Shown in pieces: positions 1,262 through 47,499 of a stretch of 64,000 nucleotides of DNA. This DNA is from Candidatus Nomurabacteria bacterium (GTDB lineage: Bacteria > Patescibacteriota > Minisyncoccia > Phycocordibacterales > UBA918), in the NCBI GenBank assembly GCA_020632075.1, contig JACKGH010000001.1, positions 259,216 through 323,215 of the forward strand, written 5' to 3'. How positions within the stretch are numbered: the first letter of the stretch is position 1; every line of letters begins with the position of its first letter. Made by a program: the position numbers and the translations under genes. Under the pieces are notes generated by a model. That model saw only the letters and a list, made by a program, of their open reading frames with translations, was not told the origin of the DNA and ran no database searches.

Positions 1262-1331
1262 ATTTACAGAACAGACATTAAGTGGCAGAATAACCCTTAT
1301 ATTACTTGGGTAAACGGGAGTTATTTTGCGT

Positions 1332-4106
1332 ATGCATAAAAAGTTTGATCATAAGGAGATTGAGAAGAAATGGCAGGAGAAATGGCAGACTGACGGACTG
1401 TATGACACTGGCGAGCGTGACAACAGTAAAGAGAAAGAATACGTACTCGTGGAGTGGCCATACCCGTCAGGCAATCTCCACATTGGGCACTGGTACGCCT
1501 TTGCAGTACCAGATATCTACGTGCGCTACAAGCGCATGGTCGGCACGCAAGTACTGTACCCAATGGGCTTTGATGCCTTTGGTCTCCCAGCCGAAAATGC
1601 CGCGATCAAGCGCAACCTCAACCCACGCGAGTGGACCGAGAGCAATATCGAATACATGCGAGGCCAGCTCGCCAGCATGGGTAATGCGTTCTCCTGGGAC
1701 AAGACCTGCAACTCAACCGACCCCGAATACTACAAGTGGACACAGTGGATGTTCACTAAATTCTTTGAGAATAACATCGCGTACCGCGGCGAAGGTGTGG
1801 TGAACTGGTGTCCAGGCTGTAACACCGTGATCGCCAATGAGCAAGTACAAGCTGACGGCACTTGCGAGCGCTGTGATAGCGTGATCGAAAAGAAAAAGAT
1901 GCCACAGTGGATGCTTCGCATCACTGATTTTGCTGATGAGTTGATCGACGACCTCGCGCCACTCAACTGGCCTGAACATATAAAAGACGCTCAGCGCAAC
2001 TGGATCGGTCGCTCAGAGGGTGCTGAGATCGATTTTGAACTATCTGTCGGAGAGAAGGTGACTGTGTTTACGACGCGTCCTGATACACTCTTTGGTGCGA
2101 CCTACCTGGTACTCGCGCCAGAGCATGAGCTTATAGAAAAATACAAAGATTCGATCATAAACTGGGATGAAGTTGTCGTGTACGCAAAAGAGGCAAAACA
2201 AAAAGCAGAGCAAGATCGCCTCGATAACACCAAAGAAAAGACTGGGGTAAAGCTCGATGGTATTACCGCAACCAATCCAGCCAACGGCGAAGAAATCCCA
2301 GTCTACATCGCTGACTACGTGTTAGCTGGGTACGGTACTGGCGCTATCATGGCCGTACCAGCGCACGATGAGCGCGATCATGCGTTCGCGAAGAAGTATA
2401 GGATCCAGATCAAGTCAGTGGTCACTGAAAAGCCGCTCACACACGCTGGAGCACTACTTGAAGCAAAAGGGAAGCCCGGTACATTTCTCTTCCAGCTCCG
2501 GAAAAAGGACGCAGCAAAGCTGCCAGGAAAGTTGAGTTTCTTTGGTGGCAAGATAGAAAGTGAGGAAACACCACTTGCAGCCACCAAACGCGAACTCGAA
2601 GAAGAACTCGAGTTCAGTTTTACAGACGACGCAGTAAAGGCAACGTACTGCTTTGAATCTGAGATCCCTGGCATGCAAGGCTGGGTCGCGCATATTACTG
2701 ACGTCGATGAGTCATCACTCGTGCTTCATGAAGGCGATGAGATCGTCACACTTACCATAGATGAAGCGATCGAAGACCCACGATCCTCAGCCGGATTAGT
2801 ACAAGTGATGCGTATTTTGAAGGAGCAGAAGATCCGCACTGAGTACGGCGTCTTGGTAGATTCTGGAGAGTTTACCGGTCTTACCTCAGAAGAAGCAAAA
2901 GTAGCCATTACAGAAAAAGTTAGCGGCAAACTCACCAACACCTACCGTCTCCGTGACTGGTCGATCGGTCGTCAGCGCTACTGGGGCGTACCGATACCGA
3001 TCGTGTACGATCCGGAAGGAAGGGCACATCCAATTGCAGAGGAGCACTTGCCGTGGACACTACCAGAGGATGTTGACTTTAAGCCGACAGGGGTGGCGCC
3101 GCTTGCGAAGAGCGAAGCTCTCAAGCGGCGCGTCACCGAGATCTTTGGCGAAGGTTGGACACCAGAAGTAGAAACCATGGATACATTCGTGGATTCTTCG
3201 TGGTACTACCTCCGTTATATCGATAATAAGAACGATGCCGCATTCTCAAGCAAAGAAGCGCAGCAGACCTGGCTCCCGATCGATCTGTACTTCGGTGGTG
3301 CAGAGCATACCACCATGCACTTGTTGTACTCGCGTTTCTGGCAGAAGGCGCTGAAGCGGCTCGGCCTTGCGGAGCACGCCGAGCCGTACGCTCGCCGTAT
3401 CAATCGTGGACTTATCCTTGGTCCAGACGGCAACAAGATGAGTAAGAGCAAGGGAAATGTCATCGACCCTGACGAACAAGTAGAGCGAGTCGGTGCAGAC
3501 ACGGTAAAGATGTATCTCGCTTTTATGGGGCCATATGGGGAGACCGCGAACTACCCGTGGGACATGGGCGGCATTGCTGGTCTCCGCCGCTTCCTCGAGC
3601 GTGTATACGGACTAAGCGAACACATTACTGAAAATGAACCGGCCGCGATCACCTCATTGCTTCACAAGACAATCAAAAAAGTCGATGACGACATCAAGAA
3701 CTTCAAGTTCAACACTGCCATCAGCGCTATGATGATCTTGGTCAACGACATCGAGAAGCAGGGGATTGGAAAAGAATCGTACGAGCTGTTCCTTCGTATG
3801 CTGGCGCCGTTTGCACCGCATGTAACCGAAGAGCTCTGGCAGGCGGCTGGAAATTCGTCGAGTATTCACTCGACTGAATTTCCAGCCTTCGACCCCGACC
3901 TCGCCAAAGACAAGGAGGTTACCATCGGGGTGCAGATCAATGGTAAGGTCCGCGGCGATATCACCGTTTCACCAGAGGCGACCGAGGTAGAAGTGATGGC
4001 AACAGTCGCTGAAAACCATTCACTCCAGGCACGTATCAAAGACGCACAGATCCGCAAGATCATCTACGTTCCTGGCCGCATATTGAACCTTGTGGTTTCT
4101 GAGTAG
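1332..4106 (+). CDS. leuS: leucyl-tRNA synthetase with an inserted Nudix-like domain
   Basis: HIGH (HIGHWYAF), TTRPDT editing motif, KMSKS; ORF-track start at 1326 is TTG, ATG at 1332 gives MHKKFDHKEIEKKWQ. Confidence 0.95.
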   Translation: MHKKFDHKEIEKKWQEKWQTDGLYDTGERDNSKEKEYVLVEWPYPSGNLHIGHWYAFAVPDIYVRYKRMVGTQVLYPMGFDAFGLPAENAAIKRNLNPREWTESNIEYMRGQLASMGNAFSWDKTCNSTDPEYYKWTQWMFTKFFENNIAYRGEGVVNWCPGCNTVIANEQVQADGTCERCDSVIEKKKMPQWMLRITDFADELIDDLAPLNWPEHIKDAQRNWIGRSEGAEIDFELSVGEKVTVFTTRPDTLFGATYLVLAPEHELIEKYKDSIINWDEVVVYAKEAKQKAEQDRLDNTKEKTGVKLDGITATNPANGEEIPVYIADYVLAGYGTGAIMAVPAHDERDHAFAKKYRIQIKSVVTEKPLTHAGALLEAKGKPGTFLFQLRKKDAAKLPGKLSFFGGKIESEETPLAATKRELEEELEFSFTDDAVKATYCFESEIPGMQGWVAHITDVDESSLVLHEGDEIVTLTIDEAIEDPRSSAGLVQVMRILKEQKIRTEYGVLVDSGEFTGLTSEEAKVAITEKVSGKLTNTYRLRDWSIGRQRYWGVPIPIVYDPEGRAHPIAEEHLPWTLPEDVDFKPTGVAPLAKSEALKRRVTEIFGEGWTPEVETMDTFVDSSWYYLRYIDNKNDAAFSSKEAQQTWLPIDLYFGGAEHTTMHLLYSRFWQKALKRLGLAEHAEPYARRINRGLILGPDGNKMSKSKGNVIDPDEQVERVGADTVKMYLAFMGPYGETANYPWDMGGIAGLRRFLERVYGLSEHITENEPAAITSLLHKTIKKVDDDIKNFKFNTAISAMMILVNDIEKQGIGKESYELFLRMLAPFAPHVTEELWQAAGNSSSIHSTEFPAFDPDLAKDKEVTIGVQINGKVRGDITVSPEATEVEVMATVAENHSLQARIKDAQIRKIIYVPGRILNLVVSE

Positions 4107-21726: not shown

Positions 21727-23682
21727 ATGACCGGGAACGATATTCGTAAAAAATACTTAGCTTTTATGGCCGAAAAGGGCCACGCTGTTGTTCCGTCGGC
21801 GGCCTTGGTGCCAGACAATGACCCAACCACGCTCTTTACCGGGAGCGGTATGCAGCCAATGGTGCCGTATTTGCTTGGTGAAACACACCCAAAGGGAGTC
21901 CGGATCGCTGACTCGCAGAAGTGTTTTCGTGCTGAAGACATTGAAGAAGTGGGAGACAATCGTCACACCACATTCTTCGAGATGCTCGGTAACTGGTCTT
22001 TTGGTGACTACTTTAAGGAAGAGCAGGTAAACTGGATGTTTGACTTCCTGGTGGATGAACTCGGACTCGACCCAAACAAGCTCTATATCACGGTCTTTGG
22101 CGGGGATGAAGCGAGCGGTGTCCCGATGGACGAAGACGCACCAGCCTACTGGCAGAAGCGTTTTACTGAGAAGGGCATCGATGCTGGTATTGCACACGTC
22201 GGTAGCGAGGAAGACGGCTATGAACGCGGTATGAAGGAGGGTGAGCGTATCTTCTACTACAACGCCAAAAAGAACTGGTGGAGTCGCGCTGGCGTACCTC
22301 AAAACATGCCCGTCGGTGAGCCTGGTGGTCCAGACTCTGAGATGTTCTACGACTTCGGTACTCCACACGATCCAAAGTGGGGCAAACACTGCCACCCAAA
22401 CTGTGATTGTGGCCGCTTCATGGAGATCGGCAACAACGTCTTCATGCAGTACGTGAAGAAGGGAGAAGGGAAGTTTGAAGAACTCAAGAACCGCAACATC
22501 GACTTCGGCGGCGGTCTTGAGCGTGTCGCCGCAGCGGTAAATGACGAGCCTGATGTGTTTAAGGTCGATCTCCTTTGGACCGTGGTTGAGCACATTGAAG
22601 AGCTCACCGGAAAGAAATACCAAGACAACAAAGAAGCCTTCAGGGTTATTACCGACCATATTCGCGGCGCGGTCTTTATGATCGGCGACGGCATTTTGCC
22701 TGGCAACAGTGAGCAGGGCTACTTTGTGCGCCGCTTGCTTCGTCGTGCAGTACGCTACGCAGACATCCTTGAGATTCCGGCTGGGAAGTTCCCAAACCTC
22801 GCTGAAAGTGTGATCGGAAAATACGAAGAGCACTACACCAATCTCGCCGAAAAGCGCGAAGCGATCAAAGACGCTATCGCCACAGAAGAAGCACAGTTCC
22901 GCAAGACACTTGAGAATGGACTCAAGCAGTTCAATAAGATCGAGCTGCAGATCCATATCACAAAGGAAGAACTCGACAAAGCAAAGGAGACGGGCGAGAA
23001 GATTGTCGGTACAAAGGAGAACACCAAAAAGGCGATCTCAGCTAAAAATGCCTTTGATCTCTTTACGACGTTTGGTTTCCCGATCGAGCTGACCGAAGAA
23101 ATTGCTGCAGAAAAAGGACTTGTCGTAGATCGCGCTGGCTTTGAGAAGCTGATGGAAGAACATCGTGAAAAGTCACGGGCTGGTTCGGAGCAGAAGTTTA
23201 AGGGTGGACTGGCAGATCAAGGTGAAAAAACCGTGCAGTACCACACCACGACCCACCTCATGCTGGCGGCACTGCGCAACATCCTTGGCGATCATGTGCA
23301 TCAAGCCGGCAGCAACATCACCGGCGAACGTCTCCGCTACGACTTCACACACCCTGAGAAAGTAGAGAAGGAAACACTTGAGAAAGTAGAAGGGTGGGTG
23401 AATCATGCGATCCAAACTGGTGGTAAGGTCACAATTGAAACAATGAAACGTGACGACGCTGAAAAAGATCCTTCAATTGAAGGTAGTTTCTGGGACCGCT
23501 ATCCTGATGAAGTAAAGGTGTATGTCGTGACCGGAAATGACGGTACCGTATTCTCGAAAGAACTTTGCGGCGGACCCCACGTACAGGAGCTCGCTGACAT
23601 CAAAGGCACTTTCAAGATCCAGAAGGAAGAATCCTCCTCTGCTGGGGTCCGCCGCATCAAGGCGGTGTTGGTAGATGAGTAG
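21727..23682 (+). CDS. alaS: alanyl-tRNA synthetase, short form lacking the C-terminal C-Ala domain
   Basis: class II core, editing HTTTHLMLAAL...H motif; 651 aa. Confidence 0.9.
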   Translation: MTGNDIRKKYLAFMAEKGHAVVPSAALVPDNDPTTLFTGSGMQPMVPYLLGETHPKGVRIADSQKCFRAEDIEEVGDNRHTTFFEMLGNWSFGDYFKEEQVNWMFDFLVDELGLDPNKLYITVFGGDEASGVPMDEDAPAYWQKRFTEKGIDAGIAHVGSEEDGYERGMKEGERIFYYNAKKNWWSRAGVPQNMPVGEPGGPDSEMFYDFGTPHDPKWGKHCHPNCDCGRFMEIGNNVFMQYVKKGEGKFEELKNRNIDFGGGLERVAAAVNDEPDVFKVDLLWTVVEHIEELTGKKYQDNKEAFRVITDHIRGAVFMIGDGILPGNSEQGYFVRRLLRRAVRYADILEIPAGKFPNLAESVIGKYEEHYTNLAEKREAIKDAIATEEAQFRKTLENGLKQFNKIELQIHITKEELDKAKETGEKIVGTKENTKKAISAKNAFDLFTTFGFPIELTEEIAAEKGLVVDRAGFEKLMEEHREKSRAGSEQKFKGGLADQGEKTVQYHTTTHLMLAALRNILGDHVHQAGSNITGERLRYDFTHPEKVEKETLEKVEGWVNHAIQTGGKVTIETMKRDDAEKDPSIEGSFWDRYPDEVKVYVVTGNDGTVFSKELCGGPHVQELADIKGTFKIQKEESSSAGVRRIKAVLVDE

Positions 23683-44460: not shown

Positions 44461-44490
44461 TTCATTGTTTTGGAGCAGTTTTCTGCTACT

Positions 44491-45444
44491 ATGAGCGATA
44501 TGACTACTGGAAAGAAGCGACTACTTACTGGCCTGCAAGCTTCAGGCAATCTACATATTGGTAACTACTTTGGTGCTCTTAAACCCTTTTTGGATATTTA
44601 CGAAGACTATGAAAGCTACTTGATGGTAGCCGACTACCACGCCCTCACCAGCTTACGAGACCCTGAGGCGCTTCGCGCAAACATCCTTAATGTTGTACGT
44701 GACTACCTCGCAGTAGGAGTTGATCCTGAAAAAGCAGTGATCTTTTGTCAATCTGACAACCAAGATCACACTGAGCTTGGTTGGGTGATGGACTGTATGG
44801 TCACAGTGCCGTTCCTTATGCAAGCTCATTCATACAAAGACAAGGTAGCAAAGGGAATTGAACCGAATGCAGGCCTTTTCACCTACCCGATGCTCCAAGC
44901 CGCTGACATAGCTCTCTACAATACCGATGTCGTACCCGTCGGCGAAGACCAACGACAGCATATTGAATACACTCGTGAAGCAGTAGGGAAGTTTAATCGT
45001 GCGTATGGCGATATTCTGAAAGAGCCAGCTGAAATGATCCTGGAAGGAGTTGGCGTAGTACCAGGAACCGATGGTCAGAAAATGAGCAAGAGCTACGGTA
45101 ATACCGTTCCGCTTTTTGGCACTAAGGAAGAGATAGAAAAGGCTGTCATGAGTATCGTAACTGACTCTGCTGGAGATCGACCTGAGAATGTCTACGCGAT
45201 CCACCGACTTCTGAAGAGTGCCAAGGAACTCGACCCGATCTACGAGGAGCATAAGGGGCGATACGGTGACCTGAAAAAACTGCTCGCTGCGGACCTCGAA
45301 GCTTTGATCGCTCCAATGCGTGAGAAGCGAGCTAGCATCAGTGACGATGATGTTCGTGCTGTGCTCCAAGCTGGTGCAGAAAAAGCAAGAGCTGTCTCTG
45401 GTCAGACGTTGAAGACAGTGAGAAAGGCGATTGGCATTGACTAG
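44491..45444 (+). CDS. trpS: tryptophanyl-tRNA synthetase
   Basis: HIGN (GNLHIGNYFG) and KMSKS; ORF-track start at 44470 is TTG. Confidence 0.9.
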   Translation: MSDMTTGKKRLLTGLQASGNLHIGNYFGALKPFLDIYEDYESYLMVADYHALTSLRDPEALRANILNVVRDYLAVGVDPEKAVIFCQSDNQDHTELGWVMDCMVTVPFLMQAHSYKDKVAKGIEPNAGLFTYPMLQAADIALYNTDVVPVGEDQRQHIEYTREAVGKFNRAYGDILKEPAEMILEGVGVVPGTDGQKMSKSYGNTVPLFGTKEEIEKAVMSIVTDSAGDRPENVYAIHRLLKSAKELDPIYEEHKGRYGDLKKLLAADLEALIAPMREKRASISDDDVRAVLQAGAEKARAVSGQTLKTVRKAIGID

Positions 45445-45499: not shown

Positions 45500-45805
45500 A
45501 TGCACGGGAATACAACCGACCTTTCGGTTGAAGAACAAGTACAACTGGTGGCGATGCGGCACGATTTTGAAGTCGCGCGACTGCATGTCTACGAAGCGCC
45601 AGATACGATGGTGTTTCAGGCGAGTCAGGACGGCGTCGGCCCTTCGCGACTTACTGCCGAACACTTTCTCGACATCCTGCAGAATACCTTGCTGCTGGAG
45701 AGACCCCTGGACTGCTCGGTAATCAGTAGAAACCCGGGACCGGCACCATTGGGTGAAGGAAGCTGGGTCGAGAACACCGTATACTTGATCGAAGTCAAGA
45801 TCTAA
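45500..45805 (+). CDS. hypothetical small protein
   Basis: GAGGAGG RBS, terminator immediately after. Confidence 0.5.
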   Translation: MHGNTTDLSVEEQVQLVAMRHDFEVARLHVYEAPDTMVFQASQDGVGPSRLTAEHFLDILQNTLLLERPLDCSVISRNPGPAPLGEGSWVENTVYLIEVKI

Positions 45806-45821
45806 ACAGAACTGACCTGTA

Positions 45822-45848
45822 AGTCTCGCGTCGCGAGACTTTTTTGTT
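45822..45848 (+). terminator. rho-independent terminator
   Basis: agtctcgcg-tcg-cgagact then TTTTTGTT. Confidence 0.85.
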
Positions 45849-46120
45849 GACGTAAAGTAAGCTTCAGGATATTCTTTCAATAAGCCATTGAAGCAGCTGA
45901 CACTGTGGAGGTGGGAGAAGAAACGTGGCGGGATTTTTTAAAAGGTCTTTTAAAAAATCCCGCCACAGAGTAGACCTCTCCGGTTTGTGCCCGATATCGC
46001 ACTGGTCGAAAACTAAGGTCCTCACCTGAGGATGAAGTAGGGTGGCACCGCGACTCACAAGAGATTCGCCCCTACGAAACTATTAGTTACTAATACTTTC
46101 GTAGGGGCGGTTTTCTTTTC
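45847..46120 (+). promoter_or_regulatory. promoter (TTGACG-N17-TATTCT) plus T-box riboswitch leader controlling aspS
   Basis: T-box core tAGGGTGGCACCGCG at 46038..46052; antiterminator GGG[UGGCACC]GCG...CGCCCC competes with the terminator at 46067..46120; stem I hairpin at 45925..45966; candidate GAC specifier at 45973..45975. Confidence 0.7.
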
Positions 46121-46140
46121 CTCCCCTACACACAAATCAT

Positions 46141-47499
46141 ATGGAACGAACACTTATTTCCGACCTACACGAAAAAGTGGGGGAAGAAACACTTATTAAC
46201 TGTGTTGTCAGTACCGTGCGTCAGCAGGGCAAGATGGCCTTCTTCGACTTCCGCGACCGATCAAGTGTGATCCAGGGTGTGGTCTTCGGTAAACCTGAAG
46301 TACTCGAGGTCGCCAAGACCGTAAGCGAAGAAAGCCCACTCGCCGTGACCGGCATCGTCAACAAGCGCCCAGAAAAGGGAGTAAACGATAAGGTACCAAA
46401 TGGCGACATCGAACTCGAAATCACGAGCATCGAGGTGCTCAACCTTTCAGAAGCGATGCCGTTTGATATGAGTGCGGAACTCAACCTCGAGACTATTCTC
46501 GACAACCGGCCGCTTACCCTACGCCGACCACACGACCGCGCGATCTTCAAGATCCAAGCCACCATCACCCGCGCGTACGGTGAGTACATGCGGAGTCAAG
46601 GCTTTACTGAATTCCAAGCCCCAAAGATCGTTGGTGGCGATGCCGAAGGAGGGGCGGAGGTCTTCAAGGTCGACTACTTCAAGGGCGTAAAAGCCTCACT
46701 CGCTACCAGCCCGCAACTGTACAAGCAGATCATGGTGGGAGTGTTCGAGCGGGTCTTCACCTACGCCACCGCCTTCCGCGCCGAAAAGAGCGCAACGACC
46801 CGACACCTCAGCGAGTACACGTCACTCGATATGGAAATGGGATTCATCAAGGATCACACGGATCTTATGCGGATGGAAACCGGCTTGATGAAATACATCA
46901 GCACAGAAATCGGGAAAGTAAACGCTGCTGAACTCGAGATCCTCGGTATGGAGTTGCCGAAGCTACCTGAAGAAGACCTCTTCCCGCACTACAAGCTGCG
47001 CGAAGCACAGGAACTAATCAAGGAAAAAACTGGTAAAGATAAGGTAGGGGAGCCAGACCTAGAACCAGAAGACGAGCGCTGGCTTTGCGAGTACGCTGCA
47101 AGCGAGCTTGGTAGTGACTTCATTTTCATCACACACTATCCAGTCAGCAAACGACCATTCTACACGTACGAAGATGAAAATGACCCAGGCTTCACCAAGA
47201 GCTTCGACCTACTCTTCCGCGGGGTAGAGGTGACTACCGGCGGACAGCGTATCCACAGCCTTGAGACACTGAAAGATAAACTCGCTGCGAAGAAGATGGA
47301 CGCGAGCAACTTCGACTTCTACTTCCAAGCCTTCAAGTACGGCATTCCGCCACACGGCGGCTGGGGCATGGGGCTTGAGCGTCTCACACAGAAATTCTGT
47401 GGTGTACACAACGTAAAGGAAGCCACCCTCTTCCCACGCGACATCAACCGTATTGATACCTTTACATCAAAGGATGTGAGCGAGAGTGCAGAAATCTAA
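46141..47499 (+). CDS. aspS: aspartyl-tRNA synthetase, short archaeal/eukaryal-like type
   Basis: class II motifs FRAE..., GGWGMGLERL; SPQLYKQ; no GAD insertion. Confidence 0.85.
   Translation: MERTLISDLHEKVGEETLINCVVSTVRQQGKMAFFDFRDRSSVIQGVVFGKPEVLEVAKTVSEESPLAVTGIVNKRPEKGVNDKVPNGDIELEITSIEVLNLSEAMPFDMSAELNLETILDNRPLTLRRPHDRAIFKIQATITRAYGEYMRSQGFTEFQAPKIVGGDAEGGAEVFKVDYFKGVKASLATSPQLYKQIMVGVFERVFTYATAFRAEKSATTRHLSEYTSLDMEMGFIKDHTDLMRMETGLMKYISTEIGKVNAAELEILGMELPKLPEEDLFPHYKLREAQELIKEKTGKDKVGEPDLEPEDERWLCEYAASELGSDFIFITHYPVSKRPFYTYEDENDPGFTKSFDLLFRGVEVTTGGQRIHSLETLKDKLAAKKMDASNFDFYFQAFKYGIPPHGGWGMGLERLTQKFCGVHNVKEATLFPRDINRIDTFTSKDVSESAEI

Follow-up and report, generated by a model that had tools for sequence, protein, structure and literature searches.

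The 64-kb stretch of a Candidatus Nomurabacteria genome studied here (contig JACKGH010000001.1; hereafter the window, to whose positions all coordinates refer) carries upstream of aspS a leader of 260 nt that very probably (we would put it at roughly 85%) acts as a T-box riboswitch, sensing the charging of tRNA-Asp and controlling read-through of an intrinsic terminator. A previous reading of the letters alone, without database searches (the sequence-only reading), had proposed a T-box at this place. This is borne out by an Rfam match that is significant although below the gathering threshold, by the finding of the same element at 41 of 80 related loci, and by covariation in every helix. That reading also considered the lineage an unexpected one, and the host indeed belongs to the Patescibacteria. 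The kind of element is in itself known; what sets this variant apart is the combination of an ultrashort Stem I with an intrinsic terminator, in front of aspS, in a patescibacterial host and with a score below the Rfam threshold. The relatives used for comparison are 80 genome loci retrieved with the aspartyl-tRNA synthetase (AspRS), so that 608 kb were searched including the window; 78 of these loci are from metagenome-assembled genomes labelled as Patescibacteria group or unclassified, and two (L014 and L020) are listed under other names.

The T-box core and its two alternative folds

The features on which the identification rests are the following:

46037..46053, forward strand: T-box sequence, the antiterminator 5' strand (GUAGGG, bulge UGGCACC, GCGA)
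46066..46110, forward strand: terminator hairpin, with 13 perfect bp, one C.C mismatch and 6 bp (46067-46109) and a 3-nt loop
46111..46119, forward strand: U-tract UUUUCUUUU, directly after the terminator
46141..47499, forward strand: aspS, non-discriminating aspartyl-tRNA synthetase (aspartate--tRNA(Asn) ligase), 452 amino acids

The conserved 14-nt T-box sequence AGGGUGGNACCGCG is matched exactly at 46039-46052, where the window reads AGGGUGGCACCGCG (with one more 5' base, tAGGGTGGCACCGCG at 46038-46052). This is the single occurrence of the exact core in 64 kb, and the sequence is nearly invariant across the 41 relatives. The 7-nt bulge UGGCACC occupies 46043-46049, and its UGGC is complementary to the tRNA 3' end GCCA. 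On either side of it, GGG (46040-46042) and GCG (46050-46052) are able to pair with CGCCCC (46067-46072), and the same CGCCCC opens the 5' arm of the terminator. Core, pairing and bulge had all been noted in the sequence-only reading and are confirmed by direct reading. The complete antiterminator consists of 46037-46053 with 46066-46075, i.e., GUAGGG/CCCUAC, the bulge, and GCGA/UCGC. RNAalifold, run on the related leaders, arrives independently at the same bulged helix as their consensus structure. In the alignment 98.7% of the antiterminator is paired, with changes on both sides at 5 of the 10 pairs, and none of 500 shuffles was as good. In the window, removal of the terminator 3' arm leaves the antiterminator, 7-nt bulge included, as the fold of minimum energy (-14.3 kcal/mol; -10.7 kcal/mol for the ten core pairs alone).

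The 3' strand of the antiterminator is identical to the first 10 nt of the terminator hairpin (46066-46075), so that the two folds, both of which are predicted, exclude each other, as had been suggested. The terminator, at -25.8 to -32 kcal/mol, is ca. 11-18 kcal/mol more stable than the antiterminator. It had been described as a perfect 12-bp hairpin followed by a T-tract; hairpin and T-tract hold, the length does not (13 + 6 bp around the mismatch). The hairpin ends 31 nt upstream of the aspS AUG. In nearly all relatives a terminator hairpin, 42-49 nt long and with a U-rich tail, is located 22-33 nt upstream of the start codon; the equivalent hairpins fold at -20 to -32 kcal/mol in most of 39 leaders, and about 30 of 35 relatives, counted by eye, have at least four U in the 6 nt past the hairpin.

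Stem I and the specifier

At its 5' end the leader folds into a very small Stem I:

45884..45912, forward strand: ultrashort Stem I, a K-turn and a 4-bp helix
45884-45886 with 45910-45912: Stem I C-helix (G45884-C45886 with G45910-U45912)
45887-45889: K-turn bulge AUU, with tandem G.A pairs G45890/A45891 with G45908/A45909
45893-45896 with 45903-45906: Stem I helix (4 bp), with terminal loop CUGACA (45897-45902)
45899..45901, forward strand: specifier GAC (Asp), with A45902 as the purine that usually comes next

The AG bulge, the distal loop and the tRNA-elbow platform are all missing. The same holds for the general layout in the relatives, all of which have a Stem I helix of 4-5 bp with a terminal loop, and 37 related leaders share the consensus ACC-AAU-GA-N-[4-5 bp]-CUGACA(C/A)-[4-5 bp]-N-GA-GGU. 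In their alignment (A2) 96.9% of the Stem I cells are paired, with both-side changes at 6 of 7 pairs. No observed measure was equalled in 500 shuffles, and pairing in slid controls amounted to 25-48%. The K-turn bases G10/A11 and G30/A31 of this alignment are invariant or almost so, and the C-helix covaries.

The expectation that Stem I could present a GAC specifier is thus realised by the loop closing this short hairpin, and the loop triplet of the relatives is telling. In 42 leaders (the window and the genome loci, one of which is a duplicate) it is GAC in 39, GAU in two and AAC in one. Fifteen further leaders, from metagenomes, have GAC (12) or AAC (3); they stem from a pattern scan with 120 matches, mostly purine-rich coding sequence, of which 14 have a T-box core, the fifteenth leader (L138) having the Stem I hairpin and no core within range. 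The triplet in these 57 leaders is, therefore, only ever GAC, GAU or AAC, and every identifiable downstream gene encodes an AspRS. A non-discriminating AspRS has two tRNA substrates, and the triplets do not go beyond their codons, which is strong internal support for the assignment of the specifier. The UGGC of the bulge had been taken to predict a G73 discriminator base matching tRNA-Asp, and a relative (L015) has a tRNA-Asp(GUC) gene with G73, complementary to C46046 of UGGC.

The AAC (Asn) loops, found in L043 (2732-2750) and in the metagenome loci L092, L138 and L142, fit AspRS enzymes that also charge tRNA-Asn. Together with the non-discriminating type of the enzyme, these four leaders with AAC at the same loop position might indicate that tRNA-Asn is sensed instead of, or besides, tRNA-Asp. 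The discriminator fits either tRNA, as tRNA-Asp and tRNA-Asn both usually have G73. However, the loop CUGACA of the window offers GAC, which pairs with GUC and not with GUU, and the same triplet dominates the leaders counted above; we consider sensing of tRNA-Asn by the window leader very improbable.

Stem II, the IIA/B pseudoknot and Stem III

Between Stem I and the T-box sequence the leader contains the following elements:

45913..45980, forward strand: Stem II, base helix GGGAG (45913-45917) with CUCUC (45976-45980)
45918-45922 and 45969-45974: Stem II S-turn strands AAGAA and AGUAGA
45925-45943 with 45948-45966: distal tip of Stem II, a 19-bp perfect palindrome
45981..46002, forward strand: Stem IIA/B pseudoknot, with IIA formed by CGG (45981-45983) and CCG (45991-45993)
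45987-45990 with 45999-46002: IIB, GUGC with GCAC
46018..46033, forward strand: Stem III hairpin, a predicted fold of 6 bp with loop ACCU

An S-turn in Stem II and the IIA/B pseudoknot are present in most non-glycine T-boxes. In the 14 leaders compared, the base helix of Stem II is paired at 100%, with a compensatory change at 4 of its 5 pairs. For the pseudoknot, pairs were counted by an anchored parse in which the loop length was picked per sequence among four options; counted in this way, IIA has CGG/CCG replaced by CGU/ACG in 4 of the 14 leaders, and IIB pairs at 98% and shows compensation in each of its four pairs. A generic pseudoknot finder run over all leaders was too noisy, and the MAFFT alignment A5 misplaces IIB when loop lengths differ. 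Stem III, present but variable in the relatives, is followed by a conserved GAAGU, which connects it to the T-box sequence.

These assignments replace two made in the sequence-only reading. A hairpin at 45925..45966, described there as 15 bp long and offered as a candidate for Stem I, is the 19-bp palindrome at the tip of Stem II; it is not conserved and is an insertion with respect to the Rfam model. The GAC at 45973..45975, proposed as the specifier, lies inside AGUAGAC, part of the conserved S-turn strand AGUAGA(A/C)C of Stem II. The distal part of Stem II is altogether unconserved, the relatives having 10-100 nt of unrelated sequence there. The palindrome was also considered as a repeated or mobile element, and no second copy of it occurs in the window. 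On the minus strand a T-rich run follows it, which gives it a terminator-like score; no minus-strand gene feeds into it.

Distribution and annotation

With a model of the antiterminator module the element was found in the 41 related loci and nowhere else in the 608 kb searched; all T-boxes in the window and the 80 loci are of the Asp type and near aspS. The AspRS of the 41 T-box-bearing genomes are 60-80% identical, and all domains of the leader are conserved in register. About 90-180 nt separate the T-box from aspS, or from one or two uncharacterised open reading frames (ORFs) preceding aspS. Such ORFs occur in L007 (ca. 2715-2978), L021 (2661-2996), L071 (1074-2722) and L073 (from 2298); they encode proteins of about 90-110 amino acids and, in L071, a putative membrane protein of 237 amino acids and a protein of 296 amino acids. 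They were considered as gatC, which they are not obviously.

Around 20 of the 42 related leaders are devoid of Stem II and IIA/B. These minimal leaders (L001, L002, L008, L011, L014, L017, L021, L023, L024, L026, L029, L031, L034, L039, L045, L046, L049, L051, L061 and L075) consist of Stem I, a linker of 20-40 nt with a conserved ACGAG, Stem III and the antiterminator/terminator. Four further leaders have a reduced Stem II and keep the pseudoknot. Two of the metagenome leaders, L092 (AAC) and L093 (GAC), lie upstream of a non-orthologous, bacterial-type AspRS of roughly 470 amino acids, which seems to be without the usual insertion domain.

A scan of the whole window at Rfam gathering thresholds gave no match. 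The scan against the T-box family RF00230, put forward in the sequence-only reading as a check, turned out two-sided: a permissive scan of 45780-46160 finds RF00230 over 45879-46076 at the full length of the model, with a significant E-value (7e-7), and the score of 37.1 bits falls short of the gathering score. Every domain is aligned except distal Stem I; 74 consensus positions of Stem I are reduced to 4 nt, and the 42-nt palindrome appears as an insertion in the next helix. The low score is thus explained by the near deletion of Stem I. None of the 20 T-box-bearing relatives tested reaches the Rfam threshold either.

Mechanism and level of control

According to the mechanism that we propose, the terminal loop CUGACA of Stem I would present the codon GAC to the GUC anticodon, and Stem II, with its AGUA/GAA S-turn, would together with IIA/B buttress the codon-anticodon helix, by analogy with the solved actinobacterial ileS T-box. 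If the tRNA is uncharged, its 3' end GCCA would pair with the bulge UGGC and stabilise the antiterminator, so that RNA polymerase would read into aspS. If it is charged or absent, 46066-46075 would be captured by the more stable terminator and transcription would end in the U-tract. The U-tract, the 31 nt between hairpin and AUG, the lack of a Shine-Dalgarno motif and a second, clean intrinsic terminator nearby, 20 nt upstream of the promoter (see below), argue for transcriptional rather than translational control.

Downstream of the terminator one more element is found in most loci:

46123..46129, forward strand: 'fourth strand' CCCCUAC, whose complement GUAGGGG lies at 46101-46107 in the 3' arm of the terminator

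With the terminator 3' arm it is predicted to form a hairpin of -15.5 kcal/mol that has the U-tract in its loop. At most loci (equivalent positions in L001-L075) 7-12 nt past the U-tract are complementary, G.U pairs included, to the terminator 3' arm, and the mean best run of complementarity (7.23) exceeds both that of shuffled sequences (4.81 +/- 0.16) and that of strands permuted among loci (6.03 +/- 0.19). Where the terminator arms are discordant (L017, L033, L036, L039 and L072), the fourth strand tracks the 3' arm. It may lock the RNA in the read-through state, act as a stabiliser or belong to a promoter. It is overlapped by a -10-like TACACA (46127-46132), 8 nt upstream of the aspS ATG. 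Lying beyond the T-box terminator, this box is possibly part of a second aspS promoter. At least 9 of the 34 ORFs of the window scanned have a good -10 box (TACAAT, TATACT, TACACT or TATAAT) that ends 6-9 nt before the start codon (examples among these starts are 5306, 24143, 25399, 31289, 41354, 52828, 55012 and 62569). The proximity of these boxes to start codons suggests that leaderless mRNAs are widespread.

The fourth strand also bears on the question whether the T-box acts on translation, with the 'terminator' being a sequestrator or with the fourth strand passing the switch on to the start region. T-boxes with an ultrashort Stem I and no elbow platform have until now been linked to control of translation (PMC7583486). 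Many relatives have insertions in helix A2 of the antiterminator, a trait noted for translational T-boxes. The conserved fourth strand does pair with the 3' arm of the terminator, and CGUUCC could, in a few relatives, pair with GGAACG at codons 1-3 as well. However, a hairpin with a U-tract that ends this far upstream of the AUG does not have the layout of a translational sequestrator. Neither hairpin nor spacer contains a Shine-Dalgarno sequence, and within 25 nt upstream of ORF starts a Shine-Dalgarno-like motif occurs in only 3 of 34 genes of the window, aspS not being among them. A relay to the start codon through CGUUCC is, overall, not supported by the controls: the complementarity between spacer and start region (5.20; about 4 bp in the window) does not rise above them (4.84 +/- 0.17 when shuffled, 5.43 when permuted). 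Translational control seems, therefore, improbable to us, and we favour control of read-through at the terminator.

Several observations weigh against a T-box that governs this terminator in response to tRNA-Asp. The tRNA-elbow platform, which is called essential for transcriptional T-boxes (PMC7583486), is absent. A conserved fourth strand is not accounted for by a simple two-state model. The window holds no tRNA gene, hence G73 is seen only in a relative. The RF00230 score of 37.1 bits is well under the gathering threshold of 93. Finally, the locus closest by AspRS identity (L009, 83%) has no T-box: at 2900-3001 its aspS is directly preceded by a terminator, a promoter with TTGACT and a leader that is very short. 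The element is, therefore, dispensable in some lineages and patchy, gained or lost among close relatives. The low score and the absence from the closest relative would also be expected of a chance T-box-like motif beside an ordinary terminator, or of a decayed, non-functional relic. However, such a motif would hardly show all domains in register across 41 genomes, compensatory changes in five helices and a specifier limited to codons of the enzyme's substrates. The comparative data already contradict chance or decay, to which we attach almost no probability.

Transcription unit and neighbouring genes

The leader and its surroundings comprise the following features:

45500-45805: small ORF preceding the aspS leader
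45821..45846, forward strand: intrinsic terminator of this small ORF, a 9-bp stem with 5 G-C pairs, then TTTTTTG
45847..45875, forward strand: sigma-70-like promoter, TTGACG, 17 nt, TATTCT

As the small ORF has its own terminator behind it, the aspS leader is a separate transcription unit, and termination by a hairpin plus U-tract is evidently in use in this genome. The sequence-only reading had let the leader begin at 45847; this position is the -35 box of the promoter and not RNA. Transcription is predicted to start a few nt 5' of Stem I, just before 45884, and the relatives, judged by eye, have TTGAC(N17)TAnnnT boxes at equal distance 5' of Stem I.

The identity of the regulated gene is well constrained. 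Its product scores 469.6 bits against NCBIfam NF003483 (cutoff 353) and matches Pfam PF00152 and PF01336, as a class II aminoacyl-tRNA synthetase of the D/K/N group. The closest homologs are 72-83% identical, and those with names are from Kaiserbacteria, Paceibacteria or Parcubacteria genomes. The window contains three other aminoacyl-tRNA synthetase genes, i.e., leuS (1326-4106), a short alaS of 651 amino acids (21727-23682) and trpS (44470-45444), and aspS is the sole carrier of a T-box among these four genes of the 64 kb. No Rfam-like RNA was found in the long gap upstream of alaS, and trpS starts 10 nt past a histidine-kinase gene. The leucyl-tRNA synthetase (forward strand, 926 amino acids) also matches a NUDIX hydrolase domain at residues 377-453, right after the editing domain (Pfam, 30.7 bits; cutoff 21.1).

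Comparison with known T-boxes

With the canonical class I transcriptional T-boxes (RF00230, e.g., Bacillus subtilis tyrS) the leader shares the K-turn, the specifier followed by a purine, the Stem II S-turn, IIA/B, Stem III, the 14-nt T-box sequence, the 7-nt UGGN bulge, the competition with a terminator and the downstream aminoacyl-tRNA synthetase gene. It differs from them in having nothing of Stem I past the specifier, i.e., no AG bulge, distal loop or interdigitated T-loop platform, in presenting the specifier in a terminal loop of 6 nt instead of an internal loop, and in its host, which belongs to the Patescibacteria and not to the Firmicutes. The leader of B. subtilis hisS-aspS is reportedly also a T-box that controls an AspRS gene, with a long canonical Stem I. 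Saad et al. are said to have described, in 2012/2013, an 'NT-box' before gatCAB with a non-discriminating aspS in Clostridium acetobutylicum, with two specifiers and a long Stem I; the Asn specifier on an operon with a non-discriminating AspRS, seen here in L043 and L092, would be like that reported precedent.

An ultrashort Stem I with the specifier in its terminal loop is known from the actinobacterial (Mycobacterium) ileS T-boxes of class II (PMC7583486; PMC7778990). These likewise retain Stem II and IIA/B, and many of the members described here share with them the insertions in A2. They differ in having a Shine-Dalgarno sequestrator instead of a strong hairpin with a U-tract, in controlling ileS and not aspS, and in belonging to another phylum. 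Since the window leader keeps Stem II and IIA/B, its decoding module resembles the ileS type, joined to a terminator platform. The minimal relatives are like glyQS T-boxes in lacking Stem II and IIA/B, both of which the window leader has; however, glyQS retains a long Stem I with elbow platform, which the minimal relatives do not.

The elbow platform is held to be essential for transcriptional T-boxes because it speeds the capture of the tRNA before the polymerase reaches the terminator; they generally require a long Stem I with its elbow-binding motif, ultrashort ones occurring typically in translational T-boxes, and hardly any tRNA is bound by a truncated Stem I when Stem II is missing (PMC7583486). 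In TBDB, likewise, the class II model was applied only to Actinobacteria and to class I matches with a truncated Stem I (PMC7778990). We found no literature that links T-boxes to Patescibacteria, the candidate phyla radiation or Parcubacteria, and no paper with the present variant, in a search outside which most subscription journals fell, so that a prior description is possible; a 2024 perspective on the Patescibacteria group mentions synthetic riboswitches only.

Implications

Beyond the window itself, it is conceivable, at a little under even odds in our estimate, that the Patescibacteria (Paceibacteria/Parcubacteria) possess a distinct, uncatalogued class of T-boxes that decides on termination without the supposedly essential tRNA-elbow platform. 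Such a class would break the rule that connects architecture and mechanism, by which a long Stem I with elbow platform is transcriptional and a truncated one translational (PMC7583486), and it would allow a natural test of the need for fast elbow docking in co-transcriptional decisions. If this is true, the minimal members would read the tRNA only via a specifier loop of 6-7 nt on a K-turn and the bulge for its 3' end, and would be the smallest natural T-boxes. This would imply that transcription is slow or pauses, that the RNA makes a new contact, or that a protein, e.g., a K-turn binder, helps. A fourth strand capturing the 3' arm of the terminator following read-through would represent a state that has not been described for T-boxes. 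Being compact (roughly 150 nt, an estimate) and tRNA-specific, the minimal relatives are attractive for structural work and engineering.

The class is invisible to annotation at Rfam thresholds; with a covariance model of its own it would be annotated in many metagenome-assembled genomes. The finding would extend tRNA-sensing riboswitches to the candidate phyla radiation, mostly uncultured, ultrasmall bacteria whose gene regulation is almost unknown. That aspS alone of the four aminoacyl-tRNA synthetase genes in the window carries a T-box points to the charging of Asp and Asn tRNAs by the non-discriminating enzyme as a controlled step in these reduced genomes.

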